Shown here: positions 13,666 to 38,739 of the stretch, in pieces
How the letters are laid out: every line of letters starts with the position of its first letter
Position numbering within the stretch: the stretch's first letter is position 1
Source: Hormiphora californensis
Lineage: Eukaryota; Animalia; Ctenophora
Direction of reading: 5' to 3'
Assembly: GCA_020137815.1 (NCBI GenBank)
Contig: CM035356.1
Coordinates: 4,154,001-4,218,000, forward strand
Length of the DNA stretch: 64,000 nt
Translations under genes and position numbers: made by a program
Notes under the pieces: model-generated
What the model saw: the letters and a program-made list of their open reading frames with translations, nothing else
Told to the model about the DNA's origin: nothing
Databases searched by the model: none

Positions 13666-14024
13666 TTTGATAATATCGCCGGTACTGTGTAGCCAGAACT
13701 CTGGTGTTCTAACCCCCCTCTTTCTCTCTGGTGTAGTGACCAGCTGCAGGTATTTAACAACTCTCGCTTTATTTGCTCTATCAAGTTCTCCTCGACCTCA
13801 ACAATTATTTCCGAGGTTTTTTTTCGCAATTTTTCGCAGTTATGTTTCGCATTGTCCTTTTTTCGCAACTTCTCGGCTAAGCATTTCCGAGGTTCCTAAT
13901 TCTTTTTCTTAGAGGCTATGCAGAGACAGCCACGAATGATATTAATAATCTTTTTCGATACCGGATAAATGTGCGAAGCCTCCATGACTTTTATTAATAA
14001 TATACTGTTTTCCAGAGTAAATAT

Positions 14025-16931
14025 TAGTCCAGTAAAAGTTCGATTTAAAATCGGCATTTCTGCAAGAAAGCAAATTCCGGTTGATTTTGGTCAATTCGAG
14101 TACGCTGATCACGACTATAAACTTTTCGTGAACTTTTTCGTGGGGGAAAGTGGCTTAATTGGCCTTAATTGGCCAAAACTTAAAATGTGTCTAAAATTTA
14201 TTCTGCACAGCTCAAAAAATCGGGGAAAATTCACTGATTATCGGAAAAATATTTCCAGATTTTATTTGTGTCGAAAATAGGCGGAATTGGCCTAATTGGG
14301 CTTAAGGGTACACCGACCGAAATTTTTTGTCGAGTGCAGGGCAATCTCTCACCGTAGGGTTGTAGGCCATGCCAAGGAGACCTCAAATATGCAATTTGAG
14401 CTCTCAAGTCGAATTCATATTTTTGCTACAGCTGTTTAAAAAATGTCCTGTAAATTCGTTTTTGGCATCCCAAAAAAATTTTTTTAAAGATAGGAGCATG
14501 AAAATTTGGGGATTTGAAGAGGACATGAAGGTGAATAACCACAAAAAATTTTTTTGCAATCCGAGCTGATTTCCGGTCCTGAGATGGATTTCTTTTTTTC
14601 CACTTTAACGCCCTATTTGGCAAAGTTCCGAAAACATGTGAAAGCTGTAAATTGGTGAAAAGTTGCGTCTAACGATTATCTAAGTGGCCATAAATTTTGG
14701 GCGTATCCTTATTTGAGATAAGCTGAACAGAGTTTTTTTTGTGAAAGCCGTCATTTCAGAAATAAATAAATTCCCTGTATCTCAAAAACGGCTGATCGTA
14801 GAGACCTGAGACTATGCTTAAACGATTCAGAAGGTCCGATTTTGGGGGGGTCTTCTGAGAGACATTTTGCTCCTACTTCAACCGTTTTTGCTGTAATTGC
14901 GAAAAACAAAAATTCATCTTCGCCATCGTGGATTTTTTGTGATTTTGTTTTTGGTGATTATAGGGACCCATATGGACCAAATAGTGAAGGAATTAGCTTG
15001 TTACACATTTTTCCATCGTTTCGGTCCTTTCCTAGCCAAAATTCCCTAATTACAGGATATTGGAGTTTAGCTTTTGCCCTTTTCATAGAATTTGTTTATC
15101 GCAGTTACAGCAAAAACGGTTGAAGTAGGAGCAAAATGTCTCTCAGAATACCCCCCCAAAATCGGACCTTCTGAATCGTTTAAGCATAGTCTCAGGTCTC
15201 TACGATCAGCCGTTTTTGAGATACAGGGAATTTATTTATTTCTGAAATGACGGCTTTCACAAAAAAAACTCTGTTCAGCTTATCTCAAATAAGGATACGC
15301 CCAAAATTTATGGCCACTTAGATAATCGTTAGACGCAACTTTTCACCAATTTACAGCTTTCACATGTTTTCGGAACTTTGCCAAATAGGGCGTTAAAGTG
15401 GAAAAAAAGAAATCCATCTCAGGACCGGAAATCAGCTCGGATTGCAAAAAAAATTTTTTGTGGTTATTCACCTTCATGTCCTCTTCAAATCCCCAAATTT
15501 TCATGCTCCTATCTTTAAAAAAAATTTTTTGAGATGCCAAAAACGAATTTACAGGACATTTTTTAAACAGCTGTAGCAAAAATATGAATTCGACTTGAGA
15601 GCTCAAATTGCATATTTGAGGTCTCCTTGGCATGGCCTACAACCCTACGGTGAGAGATTGCCCTGCACTCGACAAAAAATTTCGGTCGGTGTACCCTTAA
15701 TTGGGCTTGATTACTGGAATTTAAAGTTTATTCTGCATAGCTCAAAAAATCGGGAAAAATTCACTGATTATCGGAAAAATATTTTCAGATTTTATTTGTG
15801 TCGAAACTAGGCGGAATTGGCCTAATTGGGCTTAATTGGGCTTGATTACTGGAATTTAAAGTTTATCAAAAATGGATTTTATATAGCTTAAAAAATCGAG
15901 AAAAATAAGCTGATTATCAGAAAAATACTCTTTGAATTTATTCTTGTCTCAATTAGACGGTAGAGCTAATTAAAAAACAATTAAATCACCCAATTGGTGT
16001 TGCGCAACATAATATGAGCCTCAGGAATGTAAAACTGAACTTTATAAGCTAATTCCTTCACTAATGTGTCCCCAAGGGTCTCCCCTATCTAGTAGGGTCA
16101 GAGGGGTATATAATGTGGCTTGAGAGGTGTCTCCAAAATGCCGATTTTTACGATTTTCAGTTTCTCGCCCACAGCACATGCAGTGTGCATGCACAATATC
16201 CCGGAAATGAACATGTTGCACCTCGCACAGAATGTTAGGGTTTCCTATTGTGTTAGGGGAGACCCTTGGGGACACATTAGTGAAGGAATTAGCTTATGAA
16301 GTTCAGTTTTACATTCCTGAGGCTCATATTATGTTGCGCAACACCAATTGGGTGATTTAATTGGTTTTTAATTAGCTCTACCGTCTAATTGAGACAAAAA
16401 TAAATTCAAAGAGTATTTTTCTGATAATCAGCTTATTTTTCTCGATTTTTTAAGCTATATAAAATCCATTTTTGATAAACTTTAAATTCCAGTAATCAAG
16501 CCCAATTAAGCCCAATTAGGCCAATTCCGCCTAGTTTCGACACAAATAAAATCTGAAAATATTTTTCCGATAATCAGTGAATTTTTCCCGATTTTTTGAG
16601 CTATGCAGAATAAACTTTAAATTCCAGTAATCAAGCCCAATTAAGCCCAATTAGGCCAATTCCGCCTATTTTCGACACAAATAAAATCTGGAAATATTTT
16701 TCCGATAATCAGTGAATTTTTCCCGATTTTTTGAGCTATGCAGAATAAATTTTAGACACATTTTAAATTTTGGCCAATTAAGGCCAATTAAGCCACTTTC
16801 CCCCACGAAAAAGTTCACGAAAAGTTTATAGTCGTGATCAGCGTACTCGAATTGACCAAAATCAACCGGAATTTGCTTTCTTGCAGAAATGCCGAAATTT
16901 GGCCTATTTTTTTAGAACTTTTACTGGACTA
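14025..16931. mobile_element. Large foldback element (host of the nested element at 14306-15696)
   Basis: Left arm (14025-14305 plus 15697-16087) is the reverse complement of the right arm (about 16254-16931). Terminal TAGTCCAGTAAAAGTTC. Internal tandem duplication of about 130 bp in each arm. Confidence 0.8.
14306..15696. mobile_element. Kolobok-like TTAA foldback element, diverged relative of 696-1972, nested in the outer foldback
   Basis: Arms of about 597 bp with a spacer of about 196 bp. GGGTACACC termini. TTAA at 14302-14305 and 15697-15700. The opposite arm of the host shows the empty site with a single TTAA. Confidence 0.9.
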
Positions 16932-18055
16932 TATATCCAATTCTGGACTGCAGTTATTAATTTTGATCTCTGTAGAAATCGAAATGAACTTTCAACCTCT
17001 ACTTCTACTACTATACGTATAGACACAGCAGACTTTCATGCAGCCCTGTGATTTTTGTCTGGCTTGCTCACACCACAAATTATGCTCTGTCCACTGTCTT
17101 CTCACAGAGACAGGGAGATATCCCTTGGTTACTATCACAATATTACAATTTATCTTGATATATGCAGTAGAACATCATACAAGATTTATCAGCTGCACTA
17201 CCAAGTCTTTCCTTCGTAGGGCTACTACTGCGAGACACATATTGGTGGAAGAGTGTCGTGTAGCTGAGCTGCAAATGAGACAGTGACTGATAGAGACATA
17301 AATTTGTGCACAAATGAAACATGTTTTAATGAAATGGATATAATATGGCTCACTGGGACTGGGGTAGATTTGTGTTGTTCTGCAGATCTTCCATGCACCC
17401 ATACTACCTTTGTTCATGGGATGCCGGATGCGGACTTGATAGGTGTGTCAGAGAGGGATCCATGTTATCACGTGTAACACGGCTGTCATCACTAACACTA
17501 CCACGTTACCACTAGACTGCATATCAGTACGTTATCAGATGTTATCCGAACTATACTCAAGATCCACTGATCCAGTGGCCTGGTACTAAAGGACAAATAT
17601 TGCCAATATGATCTAGTGATGACGACTCTATATCTTGTGATGACGGCACTATCTTGGGGATGCATTGACATCTGCGGCCGCGGGCATGGTGACTCCATCA
17701 TCATTGATGATGCCATATATGATTGTAATACAGAAATTACGTAAAAAAGATACCGTATATGAATATGAATGTGTAACTACGTCAGCCTCCTGCGATCTCC
17801 GACAAACTTAACTTGACATACAGCATTCTAGGATTTCAAATGTCAACAGATGTGTTACTAAATCTGAAAGGCGGATATGAGTAGTTATTACAAGATACGG
17901 CATGTCATGACACCATACCGACATAAGCAGAGCGACGAGCGTACTATAAAATTGTAGTATAGACATTAGACAGTGCAGAGTCCATGTAGGTTCCTGATGA
18001 ACATTTGTTGAATAATTCAGTCCATTTTTCTTAATCATTTATTTCACTAGTCATG

Positions 18056-18662: not shown

Positions 18663-21338
18663 AATAAAGAGAGAGGAGTAAAGAGAGTGCATATATTCCG
18701 GGACGGGAGCGATGACGCTTTGTATTTTGCGGCAGACGACACTCCACAGCATCAGAGCTTCTCTCTCTCTCATTCACCATCGCCTATCTTTGCTATCTTT
18801 TGCGTCGACACGCAGCATGCGATTTGTCATCACGCGTGTCCTCGAAACCTCTCAGTAAGTTACTGCTTCAATATAGGATCCATATTTCCATATTTTGGGT
18901 CAACTATCAAACCTAGCAGTACTTGCCCACTAACTGAAGCCATCTTATTTTCTATCGCTTACAAAGTTTGTACCATCAAGGATAATTTCGATGCTAAAAT
19001 ACAGAGCACGTGTGTCGTGTCCTAATGACTGCTAAGTTATGAGACTATCTCAGCATAATATAGGTCTGGATTCCAGCCTCTGCACTCCACTTATTAAAGA
19101 TCAGTATTATATGGGGTGCATTTATGGGCAGGTGCGTACCCCCTGAATCAACTATTATTATGAATATATTAGAATGGGAATCATCGCCACGCCTGTGTTC
19201 ACTGTTCAATCGATATATTCCGTTAATAAAGGGTAATAAAGGGTAATCTCTTACTCTAATACTGTAGTATATCGAAACCGAAAATTATTGGGAGCAATGT
19301 TCAGGTTTTCTTTTTGGTTTCCAATCGAGTTCATTTCTTTATGTTCTGTCGACATCATCCCGGCCGCTATACTATAACTGTGAGACACACCCTTCAGCAG
19401 CGGATAGCACTGTAAATCTAAAACACTTTGAGAACATTTGGGAGAGAGAGATAGAGACAATGTACTATTATATGTGTTTACTAGATCAGAGGTGTTATAA
19501 ATTGTTTGGCGGCCCGCTTTAGACGCTTTGAAATAGTACTGTCTAAGCTTCAAATATTCATGGCCTAGGTGTTATGCTATTTCTTTAGAATGCTTTGATC
19601 TTTTGATGGCTGCACACACTTTCGTACATATTGTATACTTTCTTCCGCGAATTTTTCCCATCGAGGCTGTCTTATTCGGTGTATTTATCACTTGATGGGT
19701 ATAGCTTTTCCCAATCCAGTGTCATTCAAAACTCATTCTCTCTCAAGAGCTTATGTTGTTCCGCTACTGACTATTATTATGAATATTAACATATTGTCTA
19801 ACATACTACTAATAGTAGTAGTATTGTCTAACATGTCACCCCTTCTATAATAGCGATGCCAAGTTCTGATCCGCTGAATGTCTGCTGGGTGACTAACACA
19901 TCCGTCTGTGGGGTCCATGTGGGAGGAGAGAACTGGACTGATACTTCACAGTTCTGTTATCGAGTAAGTACACTTGGATTGGCAAGGAAATTACCTCACA
20001 TTCTCGTTTAGCTTTGCTACCTAATTCATGCGCCGGCAAGGGAGAGGTAACAATTCGTTACCAAACACTTGGCATACGCTGCAGACCACTCATTGTACAG
20101 GGCGGGATACATGCGAGGGGACTGCAGTGCATACCTTAACGGCAAACGTTTGCAAACCCAGTTTGAATACTAGTTCTGAGGTCTGCTAGGCTACATTTGC
20201 AGCATTATTAGCGAATAGGCATTGGGTCTTGACTCTTGACCGTATCTTCACTCCATATAATGGCCTTATTCCAGAAGAAATGTATAATGTATGGAGGTTC
20301 AAATCATCCGCAATCTTTGGTGATGAGATCCCCTATTATGGGCTTCGTTTGCCGCGCTTCGCGCGGCCCTAGTGTAGGGGTGACCGCGTCACCAACCGCA
20401 ATCTAGACATTTTAATGTGACAGCTGGGTTTATTAGAACTTCCCTGCACTGTTAAACACATGATTGCAAACCCCGGCCCTGAGGTGTTGCAGCTGTGGTA
20501 GGTGTCGAAATATAGCTACATCATGTTGTAACACAATTCTGCAAGATACCAGCTCTCTGTAACTCTGACATCACTTTAACAAGATGAAATGTCAGAAAGT
20601 TTAAAGTTCCTGATCCCCAACTCAGATAGTTGTACATGCTGAATGATAGAAATTTTTTAGCTTTAATAACTGGAACATACGGGTAAAAAGGTCTAGTTAT
20701 AAAATTCGAAGTACTTTTTGTTTTTATGGACCTTTTCAAGTACAACTTGCTGCACGTCAAACTATCTTTTGCTCTCTTTAGTAAAAGTAACAATCTTTCT
20801 TTTGCTCTCTTTAGTAAAAGTACCAATCTCACCTCGTGGAGGTGATCAGTCTACTGTACGTGCATGTGTACTACTTCTAGTCGGGATTGAGATCAAATGT
20901 TTATTTCGTTGGCTTCTCGACTCCCTCTACTTTTCTCCCTAAAACAATTCCAATAGTACCAGAGTCTCCATATCTTTGTTACCACAATACTTGTAGAGAG
21001 AAAGAGAGAAAGGGAAAGAGCGAGAGGGGAAGATGGATAGAGATCACTATCTCAAGTCTATCGAGATAGTGATCTCTTGAGAGATAGAGGGGGAGAGAGA
21101 AAGAAAGAGGGAGAGACAGAGAGAGAGATAGAGTTGGTAGAGAAATATACAAAGATACTTGATAGGGAATCAAGAATCCACGTAAGAATTGTGTGGCATA
21201 GACTAAGTCTAAATTCTAATATTTCATGCATACTCTAATAATATTAATTCTAATAACGACCAGATATTACCATTACTGCAACAGTGCATAACTTTTCTTT
21301 ATCCTGTTTATAGACATTATATATTTCAAAGGGAACTG

Positions 21339-22692
21339 GTGCAATCACATCAATGTCTTGGACAACGTGTTCTCAGATTGACTAACTCAATTCTTTCTCA
21401 GGAAAACGTATCACTGGCAGAGACGATAATCTTTGCTACATTTTCCCTTTTCGCACTGGTGATGGGGATTGGGGGAAATCTCATTGTCATTCTAGCTACC
21501 CTCAAGTACACGGTGTTCAGTCTGGACAGTATAACCATGGTCTTCGTACGACATTTAGCCATCGCCGATATTTTCTATGTTTGTCTGAGGATATTTCCAT
21601 CTCTGACCGTTCATTTTGGAAGAGGGTAAGTGGGAACATGGGAGCCAATCTACAACAATAATCGTTTCATTATTACAAGCCGATGATTTTTGATGCTCTA
21701 GTCTAAGATTTTAATAAAATTCTCACCACCTTCCTTCCCCTCCACCAGGTGGGTGCTTGGACGAGGGATTTGCCAGTTCGTAGCAAACACTGTCATGATC
21801 AGTACCCTGGCGTCGATGAACTTCATTCTAACCATCTCCGTCCACCGTCTCCTTCGTTGCATGTTTCCTCTCCGGTTTTCCCTTTCCGTTCGGAACAAAG
21901 GCCACCATTCTGGCACTCATCCTGTGGGCTTACTCTTGCCTGGGTACAGTTGTTTCCCTAAGCTTGGACATTGATGTCTACTTTAAACCTGGTATCTCGG
22001 CGTGTGATATCGAGTACTCTGGGAACTCCAGAACTGATGTCAAGACGGCTGCTCTTATCGGTGTAGTCATGCAAATGTTGATTCCCTTCATATCAATCAT
22101 CTTGATTAACATAGCAATGTATATAATCGCGAAGAAGAGATTCAAGGATCTATCAACTAACCAGGCCCTCATGACAGGTCTCAAGCGTGTCAGGTCTCTT
22201 TGTGGCGTCTTGGTTGCCCAGCATTCTAATCATCCTTGATGAGCGTCTCTAAAGCAGTCAGCCCGGGAACCTTCCTGCTTTTGGACAAAATCCAGATCCA
22301 CTTTTATTACCTGAGCATCTTCGGTAACCCCCTACTCTACTCGTTTGTCCATAAGGGCTTTGGAAGGTTTGCTCGCTCTAAGTTCTCCGTGTTCCTGCGT
22401 AACTTGCCAGAATAGCGTTGAAGCACAGTGGAACAACTCTCTGTCGCGAGACTCCGACCACCCACAGCAGGATTTCAGTGCAGAAGCGAAGAGAGAGAAT
22501 ATGAAGAAAAGTAAGAAGAAGAAGAAGGGACCGTCTTCTTTGGAGATGGCAGATCAAAAGCCGTCTGTCAGCGGTGAGGGGGGTACTGCTGCTCCTGCTC
22601 CACCTACTATCGAGGAAGATAAAGACTGCTATATTTATCAGGGTGAAAGTGCTCACTCTAAAGACTCGGGATTATGCTCTGCCATGAACTAG
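21339..22692 (+). CDS. Rhodopsin-like (class A) GPCR with one intron (21626-21748); appears frameshifted
   Basis: TM1 GIGGN, TM2 HLAIAD, WVLGRGIC, TM3 SVHR, TM6 SWLP, TM7 GNPLLYSF. Four +1 shifts (about 21894, 22178, 22234, 22404), each in a doubled base. Confidence 0.8.
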
Positions 22693-22959: not shown

Positions 22960-23206
22960 AGCTGTCTGGCGCCACGGATCCCACCTAAGCACAATGTCGC
23001 ATTGCCAGACAAATCGGTAGCGTGTGACATGTGAATTGCAAGCCGTTCACAATACTAAAGATCACAGTTAATTTTAGCTGGGACCCAGCTAAAATTAACT
23101 GTGATCTTTAGTATTGTGAACGGCTTGCAATTCACATGTCACACGCTACCGATTTGTCTGGCAATGCGACATTGTGCTTAGATGGGGCCCGTGGCGCCAG
23201 ACAGCT
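22960..23206. repeat. 247-bp near-perfect palindrome (hairpin element)
   Basis: AGCTGTCTGGCGCCACGG...GCTGGG-A-CCCAGC...CCGTGGCGCCAGACAGCT, symmetric about 23083. Confidence 0.9.
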
Positions 23207-24330
23207 ACCAATTTGAATCCAAAACTACATTTCTGTATGTGTATATTCGTGAATCGTGCGCCCCTCATGCACATTCTTAAAAACGTACCCGCAAACTGCA
23301 AAGTAGGACAAACCTCCATGCTGCGGCCTTACACATGGGCTAAATTAAAAATTCCCACCCACAATGGTCGCAACACGAACTCTCATACCCACCAGGACAC
23401 ACCCTGGGGGCTGGGCATTTGAAAATTGAACTCCTGGTGATAATCAATTCCGATCGCGAACTGCTGAGGCCCAGAGGTAATATCATCATCACAATACATT
23501 TTATATTCCGCTTAATGCCTAAACATTCATTCACGTGGGAGTTAAACTTTGCCAAAATCTTGTCAAAAGACAAAAACTTGTCAAAAATCTTGACAAGCCT
23601 TGCTTTTTTAAAATGAGGTGAAAACGAGGGGGGGGGCCAATATCGGCCTTAAAATAAAATATATAATAAATTATACTGTAGAAATCAATGGAATCAATAA
23701 ATTATTGTGGAATTAGTCCATACGATATAAATATTCATCAGCGTCACTTGCGGCTGCCTTGCCCCTGCCCCGATATCCCCTAATCGATACAGTTATTGAG
23801 CGAACCATCGCAAATGATAAGCGCAGTCTAAGATACCGAATACAGTCCTGGCGCTCATATCCAGTTTTTGAAGATTTTCGGTGGGCCAACTGATTTGATT
23901 TGGAAAAGGATAAAAATCGATATATTTATAAAGACAATATCCCGGTTGGCTCCTATTGACGGAGTGTCAATATCGACGGAGCGCTTACACCTCAAAATAC
24001 TCTAAAAATTCACACACAGACAGTTCTCACACACTACGGACAAACAGACTAATACAGTATATTTTTAATAGAATAAACAAAATCTAATATGGCTACTATA
24101 ATAGATAATATATTGATTATTTCCCCCTCCCTAGCCAACCCCCCAAAATTCTTGTTTGTAAATGTCTTGTAATCAATTATGTGATTAGATTCGCGACTGT
24201 GCGATTGCTTGTTGTATAGTTTCAACTCTTCAACACCACACCAAAGAAATAAATAATTTGAAGTCCATGAGATAGGAGAGATTGATCTAAAGTTTAGAAA
24301 GTAGGTGAAGTCAATAGCACAGCCGCGAAT

Positions 24331-27300
24331 TTACGAATTTGGAATGTTATTCCAGAGATAATCTTTGAGCTTGGCCACAAAGGCATCATGAGAATCTAGG
24401 CATCGTAGGTCATGCGGAAGGTTATTCCATTTCACATGGATACGGTAAAAATAACTATGCTTAAAAGCGTCAATATTAGGGTTATGTGTGCAAATGATGT
24501 CTGTTTGGTCCCGGTTTGTCTGTTGTCTAGTTGTACGCCTGTCGTGTCTGTCAGGGATGTATTTGTGAAGGAACATTGGAAGTTTTAGGGATGAAGATCC
24601 GTAGAATATCTTATGAAACAGTTTTAAGTCATTATAAAGGAACCTTTCGGTAATAGGAAGAATCTTTCTTTGTTTAAGTTTACTGACATACGTTTTCCAA
24701 TCATAGCTGAGCTCCATTTCATTATTTATCCATTTTAATGCACGTTTTTGGAGCTTTTCGAACTTTTCAATACTAGAGGCTGAAACTGGTCGCCATATCT
24801 GGCTGCAGTGTTCAAACAACGAACTAACAAGACTGACATAAAGTGTTCTCCTCTTTAGAGGGGAATCAACCAGAGCACTAGTTCTCTTGACTAGGCCTAA
24901 CCTCTGAGACGTTTTAGAAATTATCATGTTTTGGTGTTCTAGAGGCGATAATTTTCTATTGGTGATCACCCCCAGGTCAGTTTCATTTGTACATTGTTGA
25001 ATCTCACTACTTCCTAAGTAATATTTTAGGTTAACAGGCTTATGCTTCAAGGTACATCTAAGAAGTTTACATTTATTAGGGTGGAACTTCATTTTATTTT
25101 TCACACTCCACTCAATCAATCTATCAATATCAGGCTGGAGACTATCATTTTCATTCTTAATCGTCCTCCAGATTTTTAGATCATCTGCATATAGCTTTAT
25201 ATTGGTTTCTCCTTCATCCCCGATGGCCTCAACTATATCATTTATAAATAGAACAAAAAGGAATGGGCCGAGGATGGATCCTTGAGGGACTCCACTCTTA
25301 ACATTAGACCATTCCGAGAATTCACCATCTAATGTTACTCTCTGTCGACGTCCAGATAAGTACGCTTTAAGAAATTGCAACATTTTACCGTTTATGTTAT
25401 ACTGGACTTTAAGTTTTTCAAGTATGACATCGTGTGATACGCTGTCAAAAGCCTTTTGAAAATCAAAATATATAATATCTGTTTGCAAGTGTTGGTTTAA
25501 ATTTATTGCTAGCTCACAGTTAAACTCGATCAGTTGGGTCGTACATGACTTCAGTGGTACGAACCCATGCTGATGAGGTGTAACTTTCTCCAGACAAGCC
25601 CTATACAGGCGCTCTCTAACCAACTTTTCGAAGACCTTCATAATTAGACACGTAAGAGAAATCGGTCTATAATTCTCTACATTAGACTTATCTCCTTTTT
25701 TGTGGACTGGCACAACATTTGCATTTTTCCACTCAGTTGGAATAGACCCTTCATCAAAAACTTTGTTAAAAATTAATACTAGTGGATATGCCAATGATTT
25801 GTGACATTTTTTCAAAACTATACCGTCTATATTATCTGGGCCAGTGGCCTTGGATGCATCTAATTTTCTTAATATATCTACAACTTCATCAAAGTGAAAA
25901 GTTTCGTTGTTAAAATCATTATCATGGTTTCTATCAAAATCAATTGGTGTGCTATACGTACTGGCTTGTGTGAACTGTTTACAAAAAAAATCATTAAACA
26001 TTTTGCATTTTTGTTGACTACTTTTTTCAGAGTTATCCTCGTAATGAACTATATCAGGGACTCTAGTGCTGCTAGTTTTTGATTTCACATGTTTAAAAAA
26101 CTTTTTGGAAATTGCAGCTGTAGAGGCAGACTCATCAATGGAGGAGAGTTCTAGAAAGTGTGTTTCTTTCTCCCTTGACGCTTTTCTGTACTCTGCCTCC
26201 ATACAAGTAAATACATTTTTTAGGGAAACATCATTTGGAAACTTCAGAGAAGCTTTTCTAGAATTATCCATTGACCTTTTTAACTGTCTCGACTCATCAT
26301 CGTACCAGGGTGGTTGAGATCCTATTTTTACATTAACTAATGGTACATGGTGTCTTAGGGTAATATCTAATTTTGATTTAAATTTCTGAAGAGATTGTTC
26401 GGCCCTGAGGTGTTTGAATTCCTTAGTCCAGTCATACCGAATCAGTCCCTCATTAATCGCATCCCAATCAGCTTTCTTGTAAGAAAACTTTTTAGCCGTC
26501 TTAAACTTGGGTCTTATCTTTTTGATTTGCACCTCACATTTAATAGTGAAGTGGTCAGATTTGACTAAACAATTTTCTTCTACCGATACATTGGAAAAAC
26601 ACGAACTATTATTTGTGAGAATTAGATCTAATACATTTCCATCCCTGTGTGTTGGTGCGTTTATTAACGAACTCATACCCAGAGATGTAAAAAGGTGAGC
26701 AAAGCCTTCGTGTATACTATTGCTCGATACTGGGTCATCCCAATCTTTAACCGAGCTTAGATTGAGATCCCCGATGATTGCTAGGTTTTTATATTTTCTA
26801 GATAGGCGTGTGTAGTACCGCTCAGTTTCTTCAAGACAATCTGACCCCGAGTAGTCATACCTGTAGAATGTTGAGATACATATCGGGGTCAGGTTTTTTG
26901 ACTTGAGCAGTATGGTGACAATAGGCAGATTTACCTTGTCCTTTACCTGATCAACTTCAATACCCATGTTATTCTTACATAGAATCATAACTCCTCCCCC
27001 ACCCTTTTTATCATACATTTCCATGTCCCTTTTAGTTCTATCTTTTCTGTATATTGTATAGAACTGATCGGACACTAATTCACCATCATTGACATGCTTG
27101 TTCAACCACGTTTCATTTAATACTACAATTTCTGGCTCATAAGTAAACAAGTATGCTCGGAGATCAGAGAGTTTAGATACTTGAAACTGGGGCTGATCAC
27201 CACTAATTGATTGCATATTTATGAGACCATTAACGTTGCAGTACACCACACTAATTTTTGTTTTTGGTTCAGTAGGCCCAGGATTTACAATACTGGGCTG

Positions 27301-27723
27301 GTGGATAACAATAAGTGCTTTTGCTAGACTCGAAAGAAAGATTAATAGTACGACTAGTCGACACCTAACTATGATTTTGGAACAGGTGTTCCCTATTTTC
27401 CCCATACTTTTGAATATCACCAGGGTTAACACACAATTAGCATACCAAATGTAATGCTGGTTGATACTCTTACCGACTTCTTCTCGGCCTGTTTCCATAC
27501 ATAGTTCTCTACAGGACAGAGAGTAAGTACATCTGGACATAGAGCCTAAAAGAATAAGTATTAGTATACTGTAACTTAGGTAGAGAATCAAATGAAATGG
27601 TGATATTGATGATGTTTGTCTGTACTGTCGGTCAAGGGTTTTGTTAGTAAACATTTTTCTTTTTCCACCCCTCCCCCCTGCAAACCTCCCAATAGTTTGT
27701 CTGTACTGTTCAGCACTTATCAT
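24331..27723 (-). CDS. LINE ORF2: APE endonuclease plus reverse transcriptase, open frame
   Basis: CNVNGL, LNETWL, GDLN, LDLILTN, SDH (APE); NYRPISL, QHGF, DFQKAFD, GVPQGS, YADD (RT). Likely start MISAEQYRQTIGRF at 27723; frame open to 27795. Confidence 0.95.
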   Translation of the reverse strand: MISAEQYRQTIGRFAGGRGGKRKMFTNKTLDRQYRQTSSISPFHLILYLSYSILILILLGSMSRCTYSLSCRELCMETGREEVGKSINQHYIWYANCVLTLVIFKSMGKIGNTCSKIIVRCRLVVLLIFLSSLAKALIVIHQPSIVNPGPTEPKTKISVVYCNVNGLINMQSISGDQPQFQVSKLSDLRAYLFTYEPEIVVLNETWLNKHVNDGELVSDQFYTIYRKDRTKRDMEMYDKKGGGGVMILCKNNMGIEVDQVKDKVNLPIVTILLKSKNLTPICISTFYRYDYSGSDCLEETERYYTRLSRKYKNLAIIGDLNLSSVKDWDDPVSSNSIHEGFAHLFTSLGMSSLINAPTHRDGNVLDLILTNNSSCFSNVSVEENCLVKSDHFTIKCEVQIKKIRPKFKTAKKFSYKKADWDAINEGLIRYDWTKEFKHLRAEQSLQKFKSKLDITLRHHVPLVNVKIGSQPPWYDDESRQLKRSMDNSRKASLKFPNDVSLKNVFTCMEAEYRKASREKETHFLELSSIDESASTAAISKKFFKHVKSKTSSTRVPDIVHYEDNSEKSSQQKCKMFNDFFCKQFTQASTYSTPIDFDRNHDNDFNNETFHFDEVVDILRKLDASKATGPDNIDGIVLKKCHKSLAYPLVLIFNKVFDEGSIPTEWKNANVVPVHKKGDKSNVENYRPISLTCLIMKVFEKLVRERLYRACLEKVTPHQHGFVPLKSCTTQLIEFNCELAINLNQHLQTDIIYFDFQKAFDSVSHDVILEKLKVQYNINGKMLQFLKAYLSGRRQRVTLDGEFSEWSNVKSGVPQGSILGPFLFVLFINDIVEAIGDEGETNIKLYADDLKIWRTIKNENDSLQPDIDRLIEWSVKNKMKFHPNKCKLLRCTLKHKPVNLKYYLGSSEIQQCTNETDLGVITNRKLSPLEHQNMIISKTSQRLGLVKRTSALVDSPLKRRTLYVSLVSSLFEHCSQIWRPVSASSIEKFEKLQKRALKWINNEMELSYDWKTYVSKLKQRKILPITERFLYNDLKLFHKIFYGSSSLKLPMFLHKYIPDRHDRRTTRQQTNRDQTDIICTHNPNIDAFKHSYFYRIHVKWNNLPHDLRCLDSHDAFVAKLKDYLWNNIPNS

Positions 27724-27841: not shown

Positions 27842-28698
27842 TCAGCGTAAAACTTCGTTATAAATCAGGTCAGTTAAGACCGAGTAACCATATTTATTCA
27901 AATGCACACCATCCCTACAATAAAGTGATGAGTTGAAAAACAAATCACGCGTTAGGAAATCAGCCATCCAACTCACAAAACTGCAATTCATGAGTTGGGA
28001 CACACAATTTACAATTTTGTTGTACATGGTAACATTAGAGACCGTATATGAGAAGTCTCCTCTCAGGGGAAGGACATGTGTAATCACTATCTCCGGGTCC
28101 CCATACAACCGTCTAATCTGCCTCACTAGGTGGCATAGTGCCCCTTGGAGTCGGTTCTTCGTTGCGCTGTTCTCACAGAAGTTCTTATCAAACCTAATAT
28201 CGTTCGTACCATAGCAGATAACAACCTTCTCAAAGTGTGCCTCAGGGTGGCTCTGGTGGTACCTGGACAGCTCTTCAAACGCTGTAGTACCCTTCCATTT
28301 CGAATGGGGCTTCACAATCCTTGCACCCGACACAGAGATATTCTCAAGCCCCCGGATCTCAGGTACCCATTTGGACAGGCTCGTGCCCAAGAGCAGAGTA
28401 GTGGGGCTCCTAGGGTTGACGGCATGTCTCAAAGAAGGGACCACTCCAGAAGGGGTAGGAAGTAGGGGTGGTCTAACGGAGGGTACCGGCACGTTCGCCA
28501 CTGGGGGAGGAGGAGGAGGATCCGGTTGGTAACCATCCCCATTAGGAGGAGGAGGGGAATGCTGGACTCCTATTGTTGCCCTCGATGGTGGGGAGGGCAG
28601 TCTCCGTGGGCTAGGTGGTGGTGGTGGTGGTACCAGATCTGTTGAGGGGAGCTGTGGGGTTGCTCTTCTGAAGGACAGAGCATACCGCTTCTCAGTAG
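27842..28698 (-). CDS. LINE ORF1 remnant: Pro-rich linker plus SGNH/GDSL esterase domain (now in frame with the CRE RT)
   Basis: LLLGTSL (block I), SVSGARI (II), CYGTNDI (III), DGVHLN (V). Confidence 0.85.
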
Positions 28699-31619
28699 AC
28701 TGTTTCAGTGTGTTCTGAAATTCTCTACCAAGTCCGCCTGATGTTGACATGACAAGCGGAGTGAACACCGCCTTCTCAACCTGGAGAACTCGTTGCAGAT
28801 AAGCTTTCTTCTTCTCAGTTTCATGCTTCTCATAGGTCTTCTGTATACTCTGGTTGGCATTAGACTTTACCCTTGGATTAAAAATCCTTACGTCAAAATA
28901 GGTACAGTCTAAGCTTGACCAGAGTCCACGGGTTCTGATGTCAAGACGAGCCCCGTCTGCTGTGATGGTCCCAGCTGGAAGGGACGTCCCCCGAACGTTG
29001 AGAAGGTGAGGTTCGACCTTGGTATCGAGGCCGACAGTGCTAAGCTCTTTCGCAATAAAGTCTCTCACGTTGTCGTGCCTGAAGTTAACAAATCCTCCAA
29101 GCTTGCAGGAGATAGCATGATCGATACTGTTAGCTTCTCCGCATGTACACTGATCTGGTAGAGGTTCGCCAACAAGGGGGAGATTGTACCTAGCCGAGAT
29201 AGCGTCGAACCATTCCTGTCGGTTTAGAGTGAAGTTAAGAGATTCTAGTGGGAGACAAGTTAGCCAGGAGGATGCACCCTTTTCGGCCAGGAGATCGAGG
29301 GTCCTCTTCTCTTCTGGTGTCGATTTTGATTTAATTTGATCGATTGCCGTCTGATGTTGTTCGTTTTTCGTTCGACGCACAATGAGTTTGTTCTCTGAGT
29401 TTTTGACATCATCTGCAGTAAACGTATCTTCCTGGTTCAGCACAGCTGCAGACAGATTTTCAGTCATGAGTTTGGAGAAATAGTACTCGCTATCCGATGT
29501 AGCGACGGGGTTTTGAATCCCGAGTCCTCCAAATCTCGCTGGAAGAGAGAAAACTGATCGAAGTCTCTCGTTGATAACAGGTTGTCCAGTCATAGAAGGG
29601 ATGAGTTGCTGCAGAATTGAATCCTCAATCGGGCCCAACTGATCAGAAATGCCTGGAGTCGTTCTCATAAGATACGACCACCGTTTAGATACTCCCATGG
29701 TGTAGGCTGTATAAGCAAGCTGAGGCTCACTGTTTGCAATCTCCGCAAGTGATGTTATTTCTGCAACCCACTTATCTACCTCTTTCTGAACAAACTTGTC
29801 CTGACCTTCCTTAGTTCCGATATACGATCCCAGGTAACGTTGCCCTTCGGTGGTAATGTTAACATCAGGGAAAAGGGCTTTTGCCTCGTCCTCCAGGTGA
29901 GGTTTAACAATCAACCAAGATTTTCCTGGATTGGGTAGGTAGCCGTATTCAGGTCCCTTCAGTTTGATTTTATCCCACCACTGATTTACAGAAGCCAAAG
30001 TCCCTCCGCCCAGGCCATCATCGGCATAAAATATCTGGGTAACCTGTTCAATGTCCTTCAATGAAATTACAAGGGGCATAAGGCAGCTGGCGTACATAAA
30101 CATGGCCGCAGTATCACCCTGGGTCGTCCCTTCAGCAGATTTAATAATTTCATGATTAGTTCCATCGCATAGGAATAAGTTAGATGTTAAACCATATGTA
30201 TTTTTTAAATAATGCTCAAACTCAGGGCAAACTGTATTTAATATTATTTAGAGCAGCATTTCGATTTAAGGAATTAAAAGCATTACTTGCATCAATTAAT
30301 AGCACACACTCACATTTCCCGGATTCAAACAGTTCTCTCGCTGCATGCACGGCAGCCTCTACTCCGCTCTCCAGCCCAGCACATAGCTGTATCGGGGCGG
30401 TAGATTCAACAATATTAGGTTTCAGTGAGCGGGTAATCACCTTGCCGACTAGCCGGCGTAAGACTTCACCAATCCCGATTGGGCGGATTCCAGATGGTTT
30501 TTTGCTCAGAGGGACAAGTCTAGATGCAACGTATGCCGAAAGGTGAAGAGGATTAACTACTTCCGTAGCTAATTTGATAGCGAAAGTTGATATGGCCTGT
30601 GCTAGTTCGTTTGAGGCGGGGCTGAGTTTTTTGGACAGGAGCATATGTTTCCAGAGATCAGAGTCCGCTCCTGACGGGCCGCCTGAACCAGTTAGAGTTT
30701 TAGCAGCTTTGAGAACTGAATTTGCCGATATATGAGAGAATGTACAATCAATTTTGGGGAAAACTGGGCCCTCCAACAGTGACGATGAGGCTGCTGGTGC
30801 AGGATGTTTTTTGATCAACTCTGTAACAACTTCTGGTGTAACAGGAACTGGAGCAACATCGCTATCACGGATTGCACGTAGAGCCTGTCCTACCTTGCCA
30901 TGTAGCATTAATCTAGTGAAGGCCTTGAGGACATTTCGAGCCTTGCCTTCCCTACTAGGCAATCTGCTCTGAATTACACGTCCTTCACGGAGTAGAGATT
31001 GAAAATCTCCGGTGCGAAATAATTCGAGTCGTCGTTCAATAGCTATAACATGGTCCCTTGTTTTACTGGTAGCGGATGGTTTTTGAAGTACTAGCGGGAA
31101 AAGTAGCATCAGAAGCATGATTGCAATTGTACTGTTCTGGCTGTTTTTATTGAAAGAGTTCAGAACATTAGCCACTTCATGCACAAAGTCCTTCCCAGTT
31201 TTCCCGGATGGTACCTGGCACAAATTTGCTCTCCAGAATACAACCTCGTGATACGCTTCGCTCACCTCACGGTGGTGCTCTGATTCGTACTGTTGTTCTG
31301 GATCGGTGTGATCGATGGGTAGAGATGTAGATGTTGAGGCGATGTTTTCCTCTAGCAAGGCAAGTAACTGTGGTTTCAATAGGTTTGTTCTGTAGGGAAT
31401 ACCACGTTTTCGGAGCTCCTGCTTGATCTCATCCTTCTTCATCTCAAATTAATTTCTTCATCTCAAATTAATTTCTTCATCTCAAATTAAATGAGGTGAA
31501 ATGAAAAAAATAGGGTGCGCGGCGCTATTTTCTATTTGCGCGGCGCTATATTTTGATTTGCGCGTTGCAAAACGCGCAGCGCGCTGCATTTTTTTGAAAA
31601 AAATCCCAGCGCTGAGTTG

Positions 31620-34085
31620 TGATTTCGTTGTCAATCAGCTGAAACTTAAACACCCTGAGCCGGCTGATTCAACTTACTTCCTTCATGGCCCTGTGCTGCC
31701 CACCAACGACGTGATATTCTCCAGTATTACCCCTGAATCAGTGCTCCGTGCTGCCAAACACCTTACGGGATCAGGTGGTCCGTCTGGAGCTGACGCTGGA
31801 CTCTGGAAACACATTCTGCTGTGCAAGAAGTTCAAACCCAAATCGTATGACCTAGCACGGGCGATTGCGACCCTTGCAACCAAACTGGCAACTGAAAAAA
31901 CTGATCCCATGTACCTTGAAGCATTCGTTGCTAGCAGACTGATTCCCTTATCGAAAAAGCCAGCAGGTATCAGGCCGATCGGTGTGGGTGAAGTGATTCG
32001 AAGGCTTGTGGGGAAAGTTGTTGTAACGGTCCTAAAACCTGACATTATAGAGGCAACAGCCCCAATACAACTGTGTGGGGGACTGAAGAGTGGTGTTGAA
32101 GCTGCAGTGCATGCTTTAAGAGAAAAATTTAATGATGATAAATGTGAATGTATACTGTTAATTGACGCGTCCAATGCCTTTAATTCTTTAAACCGAAAGA
32201 TTGCTCTAAGCAATATTGATTATTTATGTCGTGATTTTAGCATGTATTTATCTAACACTTACGGCTTGCCAGCCAAACTATTCATATCTGATGGAAATTC
32301 ACATGACACCCTACTATCAAAAGAAGGAACAACACAGGGTGATACCACTGCCATGCCCATGTATGCATGTGGCCTTATGCCATTAGCTAATTCTCTCCGT
32401 AACATTGAAAATTCATTAGATGATGAACTCTTTCAGATCCTCTATGCAGATGATGCAGGTGGCGGAGGCACTCTAGCCATTATCGAGAAGTGGTGGAGCA
32501 AGGTGAAAGAGAGGGGTCCAGGCTTTGGATACTACCCTGAGCCTTCGAAAAGTTGGCTGATTGTGAAAGAAGACAAGGAGGAAAGAGCCAAGGAACTGTT
32601 TCCAGATGTCAACATAACAACTGTTGGTCACCGTTACCTGGGTTCCTTCATTGGGAGCGAGGATGGTATGAAGGAGTGGGTGAAGAATGAAGTGAAGACT
32701 TGGGTCGAGGAGATAGAACAACTGAGCGACATTGCCCGCAACGAACCCCAACTAGCCTATTCAGCCTACACAATCGGGTTGAGTAAGAAGTGGAACTACT
32801 TGCTGCGGACAACACCAGGGATCGCTACAGAACTAGAGCCCATCGAGAAGGCAATCAGAGAGAAATTCCTCCCAGCTATCACAGGACAACCATTCATTCC
32901 TGATACGCTACGATCCATAATGGCACTTCCTACGAGAATGGGAGGGCTGGGTGTCGAAAACCCCTGTCACATGGCTGACCTGGAGTACCAGAACTCGCTG
33001 AAAGCGACAGAAGAACTTCAGAAGGCTATCCAGAAACAAGACGTAGAATACATACCGAATCCTGAGACTGAGAAAGCCATAGCCCTCAGCATCAAAACTG
33101 GCAAAGCTAATTACCACAAGGAATGCAGGGAAAAAATCGTTCAGTCAATCAAGCCAAGAGAGGCGAGGAACCTTGATCTACTCAGCGAGAAAGGGGCATC
33201 AACATGGCTCACTTGTCTACCCCTAGAGTCATTGAAGCTCACACTCAATCGCCAGGAGTTCTTTGATTCAATCTCAGCACGATACGATCTCCCACTAGTG
33301 GGACAGCCGAGAGCAACACAGTGCGTTTGTGGAGAGGAAAACAGCATCGATCACTCCATGTCATGCAAACGCGGGGGATTTGTTGCGGTCAGACACGATT
33401 GCGTTCGAGACTTTCTAACTGCGGAGCTGGACAAAGTGTGCTACGACACTAAGGCTGAACCCCACCTACTGGAAGTTAGAGGAGCAAAACTACCACCTGG
33501 GACCATTACAGAGGATGGAGCTCGCCTTGACATTCGAACGAGGGGATTCTGGGGACCAATGGACTGCACCTATTTTGACGTAAGGGTTTTTAACCCAAGG
33601 GCACAGTCTAATGAGACTCAGGATATCCCTCAAACGTATATCAAGCACGAGGAAGGGAAGAAGAAGAACTATCTACATCGCATTCTCGAGGTGGAAAAAG
33701 CTTCTTTTACTCCCCTCGTTATGTCAACGACCGGTGGACTTGGTCAAGAGTTCAGCAGAACTCTGAAGCAACTCGCAACCAAGAAATCACGGAAAACTGG
33801 CTATACCTACCAGGAGTGTATTCGATACCTCCGTGTTCGTCTATCATTTTCAATGGTTCGCTCCATAACTTGTTCTATTCGGGGTTACAGAGGAAAGAAC
33901 AAGAATGATGGCTCTTCATCAGATCTGTACCATACATACTAGTCTTTAACTGTTGCATGTATTTTATGTGATTTTCTTCGTGTAGCCAGTCAGGCAAAAA
34001 CAATTTATATATACTATTATTGACATTGTTAGGCCAGATGCATGTGGCTTCTTTTATTTTCCTCGATTTTTTTCTTTTTTTTTCA
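31620..34085 (+). mobile_element. CRE-clade non-LTR retrotransposon B, 5'-truncated; uninterrupted RT-RLE frame to 33942
   Basis: Collinear paralog of element A from VVNQLKLKHP onward, with the same RT/CCHC/RLE motifs. 3' UTR has an AGGCC..TGGC hairpin, CCTCG and a T-rich tail like element A. No TSD found. Confidence 0.9.
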
Positions 34086-34104: not shown

Positions 34105-34376
34105 AGGGATCCCTAAAAAAGTTCAGTATTTACACAGAGTTTACACAGTCTTTACACAGTCATTACACCCAGAGCGGCGCGTGCTGCTTTTTGCGGCTTT
34201 TTCTAAGAAAATATTGGATTGTGTGCTGCACAATTGAGTAAATTGAGCGCTGCGGCGAAAAAAGTTTGCGAAAGACGCAGTCTTTACACCCAGAGCGGCG
34301 CGGGCGCTCTGGGTGTAACGACTGTGTAAAGACTGTGTAAACTCTGTGTAAATACTGAACTTTTTTAGGGATCCCT
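34105..34376. mobile_element. MITE with about 70-bp TIRs containing TTTACACAG subrepeats
   Basis: AGGGATCCCTAAAAAAGTTCAGTATTTACACAGAG... and its reverse complement ending at 34376. Confidence 0.75.
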
Positions 34377-34516: not shown

Positions 34517-34820
34517 CAGGGGTGTAGGAACTATTTTTAAAGTGAGGGGGCGAAGTCACGTGACCAATTACAGCGCTGGACAGCGCCCAAGAAAACTTTT
34601 TGTGAGCAAGATTTAGTCACCTATTCCATTGTATTTACCATGCATCGGGCGGAGCGAGAGCGGAGCCCGAGAAAATTTTTAGGGTTTTGAGCCAAAAAGT
34701 CATGATTTCGTCATTTGGGAGTGAGTATTGACTGTTGGTGACAGAAGTGAGGGGACGAACCTGGCTAAAAGCGGGGGGGGGGGGGCGCCCCTCGCCCCCC
34801 CCCCTGTTCCTACACCCCTG
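34517..34820. mobile_element. hAT-type MITE with 8-bp TSD
   Basis: TIR CAGGGGTGTAGGAAC / GTTCCTACACCCCTG; TSD GTCTTTTG at 34509-34516 and 34821-34828. Confidence 0.9.
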
Positions 34821-35561: not shown

Positions 35562-37927
35562 GTAAATATGGGCTGATCGTTTTAGTTTCTTATAATCCTC
35601 CTTTACATTTATGTGGGGGCAGCGCGGTGTTGAACAAGGCAAGTTTTTGTTTGATCAGAACATGTAGTGACCTGACAAAAAATAGTTCTAGTTCCTTCAT
35701 GGAACAACTGCAACAGTATTAGCAGGTCCCCGTCTAGATGTCCGAATGTCTGACGTCCTGCAAATTGAATTGCTGAGAAAATGTGTATATTCCGAGTTGG
35801 GTTACATAGCGTTTCTCAATTTTCCCGCCCCTCCCTCCTGCATACAGTGTCTCGTCCCCTCTCTAGTCTCTGTCTCTATTTTGACACTTTGAACAATTAT
35901 TATTCTCTGTGGTTGTGGGGTATCCTTTGAATTGTGGTGCTGCTGCAGACACCACATGTCTCCCCTTCCCCCTAAAATTAAAATAATTCTAACCCCCTCT
36001 TTAATGCTATTCCTTCCGGTTTGCTAAATCTTTCTTTCTCGTGCCTCCTTTCTTCCTCTCCTGTTATATCGCTCATTGGCAGCTCACACACTCCTTCTTC
36101 CTATGGCCTTACTAAGGTTTTAAACCGCAAAAGCTAACAATCACTCCTATGCACATCCTCGCCTTCCCTACCTCTCCATCTCTCTATCTCTTGCTGCATT
36201 CACTCTCCTTCCTTCTCCATCCATTTCTCCTCTCTATCACTCTCTCTCATTCTCTCTCTACTCGCAGGAAGACCATCATCCATGGAGAACAATTGCAGCG
36301 ATCAACAACGCGACTCAGGTACGTCTGTGTGTGTGTGTGTGGGGCGAGGGAGGTCACAATGTCCCTGCTCTTCCGGTGTAGTAGTAATGCACTAAAATTT
36401 CCAAATAACCAAGCGTTTCCTCCTCCCCACCAGCTCAAGCTCTCTCACTCGCTCTCCATAATTATCTCACCTTCTTTCTTTCTTTCTTTGATTAACTGCC
36501 AGAGAAGAGAATGTCCGAAAGTAAGACGTGTTATTATAACAAGTCTCAGTTTCCGATGTGACATGTATAATACTGCATGCTATCGAGACATGAGAGAGTT
36601 ATCTGCTCAGTCCCTATTGAGCAGTAGCTGCAGCAGTAGCTTTTAATGGCCCCGTTAGCAGATAGTGTGTGACGTGACTACTGTCCAATGTCTGCAGAGG
36701 GGTCTACAAGAGAGAGCTGGATAGAGTCCGTTCTGCATAGATGCACCAGCAGCAGGAGTAGATCTTTCTATCTGGATCTCTCTGGAGATCTGCTAGAGCT
36801 CTAGTAGATCGACTACGCGCGATATCGATCCGAGCTCTTATCGATAGCTGTCTCTCTCTCTGCAACTCCTCTCTAGAATACTCTCTCTCCTCTATCTTCT
36901 CTCTCGCTCTCTATATTTCTCTCTTCTCTCGTCTCTCTCTCTCTCCTCTCTCTCTCTCTCTATATCCCCCCTCTCTCCCTCTCAGTATGTGTGTATACCG
37001 TTAGCAGACACAATGTGTGCAGAAGGAAGCTTAGCTCCTGCGGCGGACGGGGGACACGAAGACTGAAGAGAGAGAGAAGAAGAGAGATATAAAGAATAAG
37101 GATAGAGAGAGAGAGAGACGCCGGAAACACTGTGAATAATAATAGATCATCTGATAGTTCAGTAGATGGAAGTGCGTCCCGGAATTAGAAACGGAAAGAA
37201 TAAAGATGTTCAATAGACATATATTTTGTGTGAAGAACTGTCCAGAAGTTGCTCTTCACAGAGCACGCTTTTTATTTCATGAAATAAAATTCAGTGCTAC
37301 ACAGTCTAGCAGAAGAGAGTAAGAAATATCTTGTGATTTCCTGAAACGAGTGTGGTATACAGCAAAGTAGTGTAATGGTGTGTCGGTGTGATTAAACATT
37401 ACCGAGTTAGAAAGAAAGGTGTAAGAAACAGGTGTGCTTTATGTGTGAACTGTGAAGTAGTTGGATGAACTAGTAATCAGATCTGAGTTGTTCAGTACAT
37501 ATAATTGCCAATATAATATCTCAACAACACACAGTGTGTTTCGATAATATTTCGTGTAATCACGAATCTTCATAATTAATGTTGGTTCGCTCTGTCATTG
37601 GTAGGAGAGAATGATTATCGAATAATTATGTCATGCGGAAAACAGTCATTGAGACTCCTGTTATAGAGGTCATTTTTAGAATTCTACATGGACAATGGCT
37701 CTGGATAGTCTGGAGAGAGATAGAGAGATAGAGAGAGAGATAGTACTGAAATGGAATAAAAGATGCTGTTTCTTCGCAATCTCGAGTTCTTTCATTTCTC
37801 CAGCATTTATAATGTACTTTCTCAATTGTCTTCCTTCTTTATCTATCTCTATCTCTCTCACTCATACACAGTCCACGCTGCACAATGCAGTTTAGCACAA
37901 AACCACACGTCGTTCTGAAAGGATTAA

Positions 37928-38396
37928 AGTGAGAGTGGACCGGATCAAAATTGGACAAGTTTGTTGTAGCTAGTAGAGAATAGCTCCCTGAGCATTTTGC
38001 GTTTTTCCCGCTCAAAATCGACCCACCCAACACTGAGATATTTTTGTTATGTTGGGAGAATTTCTGCTGGATCAATATTTATCAAACAGGATAGAAACAA
38101 TCCTTGTGTTTTACTAACACATTCTTTAAATTTGTAATATGCTGGCTTGCATTGCCCTGCTTCTGTGCATGGACATGTCAACCTCACTGCTTATATTCAG
38201 AATGTGTTTGTAAAACACCACGATTGTTTCTATTCTGTTTTATACATACTGATTAAACAGGAGTTCTCCCAACATAACAAAAATATCTCAGTGATGGGTG
38301 GGTCGATTTTGAGCGGCAAAAACGCAAAATGCTCAGAAAACTAATCTCTACTAACTACAACAAACTTGTTCAATTCTGATTCGGTCCACTCTCACT
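37928..38396. mobile_element. Kolobok-like TTAA foldback MITE (AG...CT termini), older copy with imperfect arms
   Basis: TTAA|AGTGAGAGTGGACCG...CGGTCCACTCTCACT|TTAA; arms of about 210 bp with scattered mismatches. Confidence 0.8.
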
Positions 38397-38739
38397 TTAA
38401 TAAACGTGTGTGTGGTAGTTTGAAGTTGGAAACAACTCTCCCCGTTTACCAGTTTAGTGGTTTCCTACTAAATTGTACAAATTTGCGGTTTTAGGAGAGA
38501 TGGAAATAAAGATAGGCTTGGCTCCGGGGGATAGAGAGAGATGGAATTGGAGCTGGCAGCTGCTTTTGTTCTAGTGCATCTTATTATCATTTTCTCTCTC
38601 TTAAACAGGAAGGATTCGATCGACAGATGCTGGTAAACTAAACCTTTGTGGTATCTACTAAAGATCATCTGTCCAAATCACTGTCCAAATCACTGTCCAA
38701 ATCACTGTCCAAATCACTAGATCTACCAATCTCCGTGTA

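Follow-up and report, generated by a model that had tools for sequence, protein, structure and literature searches.

A 5'-truncated LINE lies in frame within a CRE-like retrotransposon of a ctenophore and comes from a family with a predicted AlkB-esterase ORF1

Layout of the nested elements

The window, which is the whole stretch of 64,000 nucleotides of Hormiphora californensis DNA that was analysed, contains on its minus strand a CRE-like single-ORF element that runs from approximately 31490 to 23624 and is split by a 4.8-kb LINE (28701-23889). The LINE is 5'-truncated, lies on the same strand as and in frame with the surrounding CRE-like element, and contains an ORF1 remnant and an intact ORF2 of 1130 aa encoding an APE endonuclease and a reverse transcriptase (RT). 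The CRE-like element is flanked by a 13-mer, of which the 5' copy (31489-31501) and the identical 3' copy (23611-23623) are the only two in the window, one on each side; it is likely the target-site duplication of the CRE-like element.

Following the minus strand from the 5' end, the element starts with three 19-bp repeats (31435-31491; repeat family D1) that combine a spliced-leader 3' end with the bases that open the CRE ORF. Codons 1-403 (30234-31442) encode a SAP-like N-terminus and the first half of the RT and are 89% identical to protein P0253. They are followed by one extra base at 30233, left out in the contigs of runs X4 and X5, which breaks the CRE frame. Codons 404-914 (28699-30232) encode the rest of the RT, a CCHC knuckle and the core of a restriction-like endonuclease; they are 92% identical to P0253 residues 404-914, and the motifs are present in alignment A2. 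The 5' junction with the LINE is CAGT (28699-28702), of which AGT (28701-28699) is common to both elements, a microhomology. The LINE then contributes the truncated ORF1 (27842-28701; 285 aa with the last AlkB strand, a Pro-rich linker and an SGNH esterase), ORF2 (24331-27723; identified by Pfam and by its match to P0025) and a 3' UTR (23889-24330) that ends in two CAAAT units followed by a second CAGT (23892-23889). Beyond it lie the separated CRE C-terminus (23713-23892; Q, 58 residues and a stop; 88% identical to P0253) and the CRE 3' UTR (23624-23712), which consists of an AT-rich stretch, a short GGCC hairpin and a pyrimidine run, without poly(A). The exact CRE 3' end is uncertain: one X7 contig reaches 23628 and another diverges at 23650. 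Outside the nest, a second CRE-like element of another family, also 5'-truncated, lies head to head on the plus strand (31627-34085; 61% amino acid identity to P0253); an X4 contig extends 58 nt past 31627 and is there unlike the window.

The label "CRE-like" is a putative assignment from motifs. The features of the CRE clade that are present are a single ORF with an RT and a C-terminal restriction-like endonuclease, and the CCHC, RH, D...D and K..Y motifs. Pfam analysis of the upstream CRE frame gave SAP at E 0.004, which is below the cut-off, and RVT_1 at E 2e-4. The endonuclease motifs are read here by analogy with R2, in whose type of enzyme RH, D...D and K..Y form the catalytic core (PMC4838377). 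The full CRE-like protein has 974 residues in a single ORF (P0253, P0255). P0131, P0253, P0255 and P0127-P0129 all begin at the same Met as the ATG at 31442, which, on these protein comparisons, is the true start of the family. The possibility that the window holds a 5'-truncated CRE copy was ruled out, since its relatives start at this Met. Neighbours in the Atlas are unnamed single-ORF RT proteins, most commonly from Cnidaria, Porifera and Arthropoda, and one homolog is labelled Mnemiopsis leidyi. A CRE profile had no match in the PDB, and AlphaFold models P0253 poorly (mean pLDDT 52, below 50 in the endonuclease region). That poor model sets the junction within a helix (906-923), an observation that we do not count as evidence. 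The 3' ends of the two CRE copies and of the LINE fold no better than shuffled sequences (z -0.22, -0.88 and +0.83), and Rfam gave no match at the gathering score, only hairpin look-alikes of a 123-bp inverted repeat.

The sequence of the ctenophore spliced leader is printed in PMC8527503. Its last 13 nt (13/13 match) are found at 31455-31443, abutting the CRE ATG. The leader end occurs again at 31474-31462 and partially at approximately 31491-31481, together making up the three 19-bp repeats; the two exact copies compare with a chance mean of 0.28 at up to one mismatch. An X4 contig of the family stops exactly at the CRE ATG, as expected if CRE copies differ upstream of it. The position of the leader directly before the ATG in this one copy suggests that a trans-spliced RNA served as template and was re-primed repeatedly. 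We also considered that the element had entered an SL RNA gene and rejected this, since no leader gene lies in either flank. A CRE-like element starting at the spliced leader would, if the suggestion is right, have host trans-splicing replace its own 5' UTR. No leader-capped CRE was found in the full-text papers searched. The trypanosomatid elements CRE, SLACS and CZAR (PMC12278014) share with this element a single ORF that encodes both an RT and a restriction-like endonuclease, a target duplication and a link to the spliced leader; their insertion sites are SL RNA genes, and they carry zinc fingers and end in poly(A). In contrast, the window copy lies outside an SL gene, and its 5' junction carries no more than 10-13 nt of the leader end. 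It also differs from most trypanosomatid copies in its SAP-like start (weak in Pfam) and in its end, which has a hairpin, is pyrimidine-rich and lacks poly(A).

The junction and the coding capacity of the fused frame

An earlier, sequence-only reading of this DNA had proposed an in-frame chimera of CRE RT and endonuclease with the SGNH esterase of a LINE ORF1. The frame is indeed open across the junction: the minus-strand frame 30247-27842 contains 801 codons from stop to stop, or 753 aa if counted from the ATG at 30103. Pfam identifies SGNH/GDSL after the junction, at residues 636-789 of the chimeric frame (E 9e-10, above the cut-off). The 753-aa ORF begins at an internal Met within the RT and is thus without the first RT half. 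The switch had been placed between ...FQNTLKQ and STEKRYALSFRR, where we also find it; in the chimeric frame the junction reads ...NTLKQ/STEKR. The same reading had taken STEKRYALSFRR for part of a linker, but this stretch, at the start of the ORF1 remnant, forms the final strand of an AlkB domain. The AlkB domain of the LINE ORF1 had been overlooked there.

The missing CRE C-terminus resumes in frame, at the next codon, 4.8 kb away (23892-23713), as had been stated. CAGT is present at both ends (28702-28699 and 23892-23889), but AGT of the 5' copy is a 3-nt microhomology. An 801-nt X4 contig that matches 28667-28701 runs on upstream, so AGT is native to both elements; as it is the LINE's own sequence too, the true duplication is 0-4 bp. 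A 4-bp duplication taken alone would be weak evidence of insertion. What carries the insertion beyond chance is the precision with which the CRE frame is taken up again after 4.8 kb, together with contigs in which the CRE is uninterrupted. The view that a 5'-truncated LINE landed in frame in a CRE-like element, with both lying between the CRE termini, therefore stands, as does the integrity of the 1130-aa APE-RT ORF (PF03372 and PF00078, both above the cut-off). A same-strand insert whose end falls within coding sequence has a one-in-three chance of being in frame, and by a rough estimate ~18% of the LINE's length is ORF1 upstream of the esterase. Ordinary nested transposons consist of a young element within an older one, with a short duplication and 5' microhomology, and the CRE-LINE nest differs from them only by its in-frame join. 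For zebrafish ZfL2-1, PMC4245944 reports inserts with short duplications and with 5' joins of the annealing type.

A +1 shift had been suspected near 30232. It is a single extra base, whose position we correct to 30233, outside a homopolymer. The base is missing from the family contigs (334/334 depth in X4 and 649/649 in X5), which represent other copies rather than the window's own reads and are silent on whether it is an error or a mutation. A flank indel at 22176 is common to the window and X4 and not X5, so single-base indels do occur here as true variants. With the frame open, the read-through fusion would have 1199 residues and would drop the last 58 CRE residues. These hold conserved positions: of the ten columns that are invariant in alignment A2, counting only those covered by its short C-terminal row, nine are at residues 915-956, in the part cut off by the LINE. 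As it stands, the window would encode a SAP/half-RT peptide of 406 aa and, besides it, no more than the 753-aa frame that starts inside the RT. A whole CRE protein is impossible, owing to the frame break at 30233, be it mutation or error, and to the loss of the 58 C-terminal residues. The fusion does retain the RH, D...D and K..Y motifs and an intact esterase triad, and on the R2 analogy a read-through fusion protein would not certainly be inert.

Origin of the fused frame

To follow the junction in other material, Logan contigs of five runs (X4, X5, X7, X16 and X22, of 22 runs) were compared; runs with a share of at most 0.16 were mostly left out of the comparison and are not used. X4 and X5 are two samples of the same organism, and neither seems to be the source individual, as their flanks differ. 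An X4 contig joins 23888 to 28699, which is uninterrupted CRE, at a depth of 594, compared with 53-58 on the single-copy flank, and in X5 the same joint is visible as loose ends. Both elements look multi-copy by contig depth, a quantity that is not a copy number. None of the eight contig pieces aligned to a 97-bp stretch at the junction bridges it (two from X4, five from X5, none from X7 and one from X16). The depths on the CRE and LINE sides are 594 and 326 in X4 and ~6500 and ~5500 in X5, where a variant contig of depth 12.6 was retained beside contigs of 5500-6500. At the junction, CRE-side and LINE-side pieces each continue into their own element. Logan contigs drop rare variants and so show presence, not absence, and X7 had no piece at the junction. 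Within these limits, the lack of a bridging contig argues against an amplified or fixed composite in the two other samples, the source individual apart.

The copies are young. Compared with X4 contigs, the CRE copy has nine substitutions and one gap in 2413 nt and the LINE copy has 11 substitutions in 3800 nt; at 0.3-0.4% from the family contigs, their open frames need no selection. Very probably, the nest arose as a one-off accident when a LINE, truncated at its 5' end, entered a full-length CRE-like copy in frame, leaving what is likely a dead fusion and not a mobile unit. In a first step, reverse transcription of a CRE RNA that probably carried the ctenophore leader by trans-splicing would have placed the element at this site, duplicating 13 bp of target and leaving the leader end in three stuttered copies. 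Later, a young LINE would have primed at CAGT in CRE codons 914-915, its copying ending inside the AlkB part of ORF1. The 5' join would then have formed via the 3-nt AGT microhomology, which has equal codon phase in both genes; of these events, the anatomy of the junction is what can be seen directly. The LINE copy retains an intact ORF2 and has lost its own 5' end.

The sequence-only reading had raised the possibility of a composite element with two RTs. Were it mobile, a read-through RNA from the CRE 5' to the CRE 3' end would code for a SAP-RT-RLE-esterase ORF1 plus the LINE ORF2 and be copied as a unit. Several features are in keeping with it: both parts lie on the same strand, in frame and inside CRE termini with the 13-bp duplication, the extra base is missing from family contigs, ORF2 is intact, and the core motifs of the endonuclease are retained. 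The outer duplication is, however, expected anyway from the first CRE insertion, the in-frame join has the one-in-three chance given above, and the frame is broken in the window. No fused copy was detected among the eight contig pieces from four runs, and the protein searches gave no such case: the best 120 of the 297 matches to the chimeric ORF (440-1402 aa) cover at most 67% of it, and with our own profiles 118 of these 120 are CRE-type and two are ORF1-type. By the same profiles, none of 437 proteins carries both CRE and SGNH or AlkB. The composite is not supported, and we consider it very improbable.

An assembly artefact that joined two abundant repeats at the junction is, in our estimate, just as improbable. 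Both sides are multi-copy and no contig of another sample bridges the join, but a mis-join would not produce this anatomy, in which the CRE continues from precisely the following codon and a short duplication is present, the LINE finishes at its natural 3' tail and joins at its 5' end with 3-nt microhomology, and matching 13-bp flanks border the CRE. We give as little credence to an accidental nest that the host retained as a transcribed chimeric gene of RT remnant, endonuclease core and esterase: the 753 codons are open through the junction, but young frames stay open without selection, the junction is unseen in two other samples of the same organism, and the RNA contig from X16 spans 28716-28748 only, on the CRE side, with nothing from X22 within the nest (neither X16 nor X22 is established as a deep RNA run of this organism). 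The chimera itself is an ordinary nest, and its interest is limited to illustrating how retrotransposons may start to exchange domains in frame.

The ORF1 family of the inserted LINE

The ORF1 remnant encodes an SGNH esterase (PF13472, E 1.4e-10) and corresponds to residue 235 onward of the 514-aa protein P0130, to which it is 80% identical (77% to P0001). In all five homologs of the remnant, PF13532, an AlkB-type 2OG-Fe(II) oxygenase, precedes the esterase, above the cut-off. The loose 30 nt of the LINE-side X4 contig, translated by eye in the ORF1 frame, read VLKHRAVKNE before STEKR; from LKHRA onward they are the P0130 sequence and contain the third iron ligand. Because the upstream read of this contig is the AlkB sequence of P0130, the AlkB domain, the esterase and ORF2 belong to one element here. 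P0259 is an ORF2 93% identical to that of the window; P0130 and P0259 are each on a 5989-nt contig, probably one and the same. The homologs and this upstream-running contig show that the full ORF1 of this LINE family has the order AlkB, linker, SGNH esterase. Two ORF1 homologs are labelled Pleurobrachia bachei, and the nearest Atlas clusters, with 1-16 members each, are from Ctenophora where a phylum is recorded.

ORF2 starts 118 nt after the ORF1 stop and is identical to P0025 at 1124 of 1130 residues (99.5%), which suggests that an active family is at hand. Pfam detected no RNase H in ORF2 at E 0.1. An APE-RT ORF2 without RNase H and an esterase ORF1 are features of the CR1 group, and the clade name CR1/L2 is a putative assignment from motifs. 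CR1-group LINEs end in a short tandem repeat rather than poly(A); the present copy has only two CAAAT units.

A profile search of 1.84 billion representatives identified 134 proteins at E up to 1e-30. We examined 153 proteins (150 matches listed plus three further homologs): 113 have both domains, 32 AlkB only and eight SGNH only, and AlkB comes first in 113/113. As the profile favours two-domain proteins, 113/153 is no unbiased share. The full-length set comprises 91 two-domain proteins of 420-600 aa, 22 having been dropped for length. They are mostly 21-32% identical to P0130 and come from ctenophores where taxa are recorded. The H, D, H iron ligands (HxD...H) are present in 91/91, both 2-oxoglutarate-binding arginines in 89/91, and 85/91 retain S, N and H of the esterase. 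Among the 38 PDB matches of the family profile, human ALKBH3 and ALKBH2 are the best (E 3e-20), ALKBH5 and FTO are absent, and the esterase of ZfL2-1 ORF1 (4c1b) is matched at E 6.5e-16.

Reverse transcriptase is blocked by m1A and m3C, the marks that ALKBH2 and ALKBH3 take off, which makes repair of element RNA or cDNA the likeliest predicted role. The AlkB domain is predicted to remove methyl lesions of the m1A/m3C type from the RNA or cDNA of the element. The wider proposition is that ctenophores carry a large, old and still-active class of CR1-group LINEs with an ORF1 of ALKBH2/3-like and SGNH domains, a so far undescribed type predicted to let the element itself strip RT-blocking m1A and m3C marks from its RNA or cDNA. 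Among the AlkB-SGNH protein clusters, LINE context is shown for the window's family only, and we regard the proposition as evenly balanced between holding and failing. The same even balance applies to the reading that the window holds a 5'-truncated copy of an active family within this class.

Like the ZfL2-1-type LINEs of the CR1 group (4c1b; PMC3905857, PMC4120745 and PMC13343379), the inserted LINE has two ORFs with an APE-RT ORF2, a C-terminal SGNH esterase in a type IV ORF1, a short duplication and 5' truncation. Unlike in those elements, an ALKBH2/3-like dioxygenase domain here precedes the esterase. According to PMC3905857, none of the esterase ORF1 proteins then in Repbase had a structural RNA-binding domain. 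AlkB is absent from the main text of PMC4120745, PMC13343379 and PMC8557442, and the first two mention no oxygenase either. No AlkB domain in a LINE ORF1 was found in the full-text papers searched, and an earlier description of an AlkB-esterase ORF1 may exist in Repbase entries, Repbase Reports or subscription reviews. The one retrotransposon AlkB that the literature search found is that of the Phalaenopsis Ty3/Gypsy elements (PMC9289625), which likewise encode their own AlkB-family 2OG-Fe(II) dioxygenase. Those are LTR elements with a separate, recently acquired ORF for an ALKBH5-like m6A demethylase, whereas here AlkB is fused into a LINE ORF1, is closest to ALKBH3 and ALKBH2 and is old, its relatives being mostly 21-32% identical.

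Plant RNA viruses carry AlkB domains, and the AlkB-esterase ORF1 would be a parallel to these and to the orchid Gypsy elements. It would also bring an enzyme that modifies nucleic acids into the small repertoire of LINE ORF1 domains, and it raises a testable question: does RNA methylation or alkylation damage in the host limit LINEs, and do LINEs counter it? A related-locus search identified no intact AlkB-esterase LINE locus; viral contigs gave no AlkB-esterase match and bacteria six weak, SGNH-only matches. One frameshifted metagenome contig of 1186 nt contains AlkB-like, Pro-rich and GTND pieces. Finally, ...PSIVNPGP, which lies ahead of the APE domain, resembles a 2A-like peptide but lacks the D-x-E part of that pattern.

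Termini of the two CRE-like elements

The 3′ end of a spliced leader of the ctenophore type is present in three stuttered copies at 31435-31491, immediately 5′ of the start codon of the full-length CRE-like element (CRE), and it is possible, judging from these leader copies, that the RNA of this retrotransposon is trans-spliced. A second CRE-like element, which is 5′-truncated, lies head to head with the first at 31627-34085 (+), and its reading frame is open up to the stop codon. Its 3′ end has an AGGCC hairpin resembling that of the first CRE, and CCTCG and a run of T come after this hairpin. The similarity of these 3′ ends suggests that a T-rich terminus, and not poly(A), is common to both elements.

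The nested LINE and relatives of its ORF1

In ORF2 of the LINE nested in the CRE, the N-terminal ~150 residues (27723-27270, -) precede the APE domain. This part includes hydrophobic stretches, and its NPGP motif is reminiscent of a degenerate 2A peptide. The ORF2 start region is kept among relatives within its cluster.

The full ORF1 of this family joins AlkB, a Pro-rich linker and an SGNH esterase. The SGNH domain was not detectable in some AlkB-containing relatives of 550-700 aa, found by profile search (e.g., P0359, P0382, P0402, P0405 and P0419) and in clusters of the Atlas protein resource; in ctenophore elements, other C-terminal domains may be joined to the same AlkB type. Metagenome contig L001 carries a distant, frameshifted copy of an AlkB-linker-SGNH gene (420-1175).

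Inverted repeats, allele variation and neighbouring genes

Long inverted-repeat elements, MITE- or foldback-like, are numerous in the window (691-1977, 14021-16936, 22960-23206, 34105-34376, 34517-34820 and 37923-38401). The repeat at 34105-34376 has very high contig depth, which does not equal copy number, in both X4 and X5, contig sets from two other samples of the source organism. An X4 allele lacks the 218 bases at 23260-23479 and has 15 other letters instead.

Gene pieces just past the CRE 3′ flank (21213-22239, +) presumably belong to a seven-transmembrane receptor gene, judged by motifs. An intronless ORF of ~540 aa (4588-6270, -) resembles, by its motifs, a secreted berberine-bridge-type FAD-linked oxidase.
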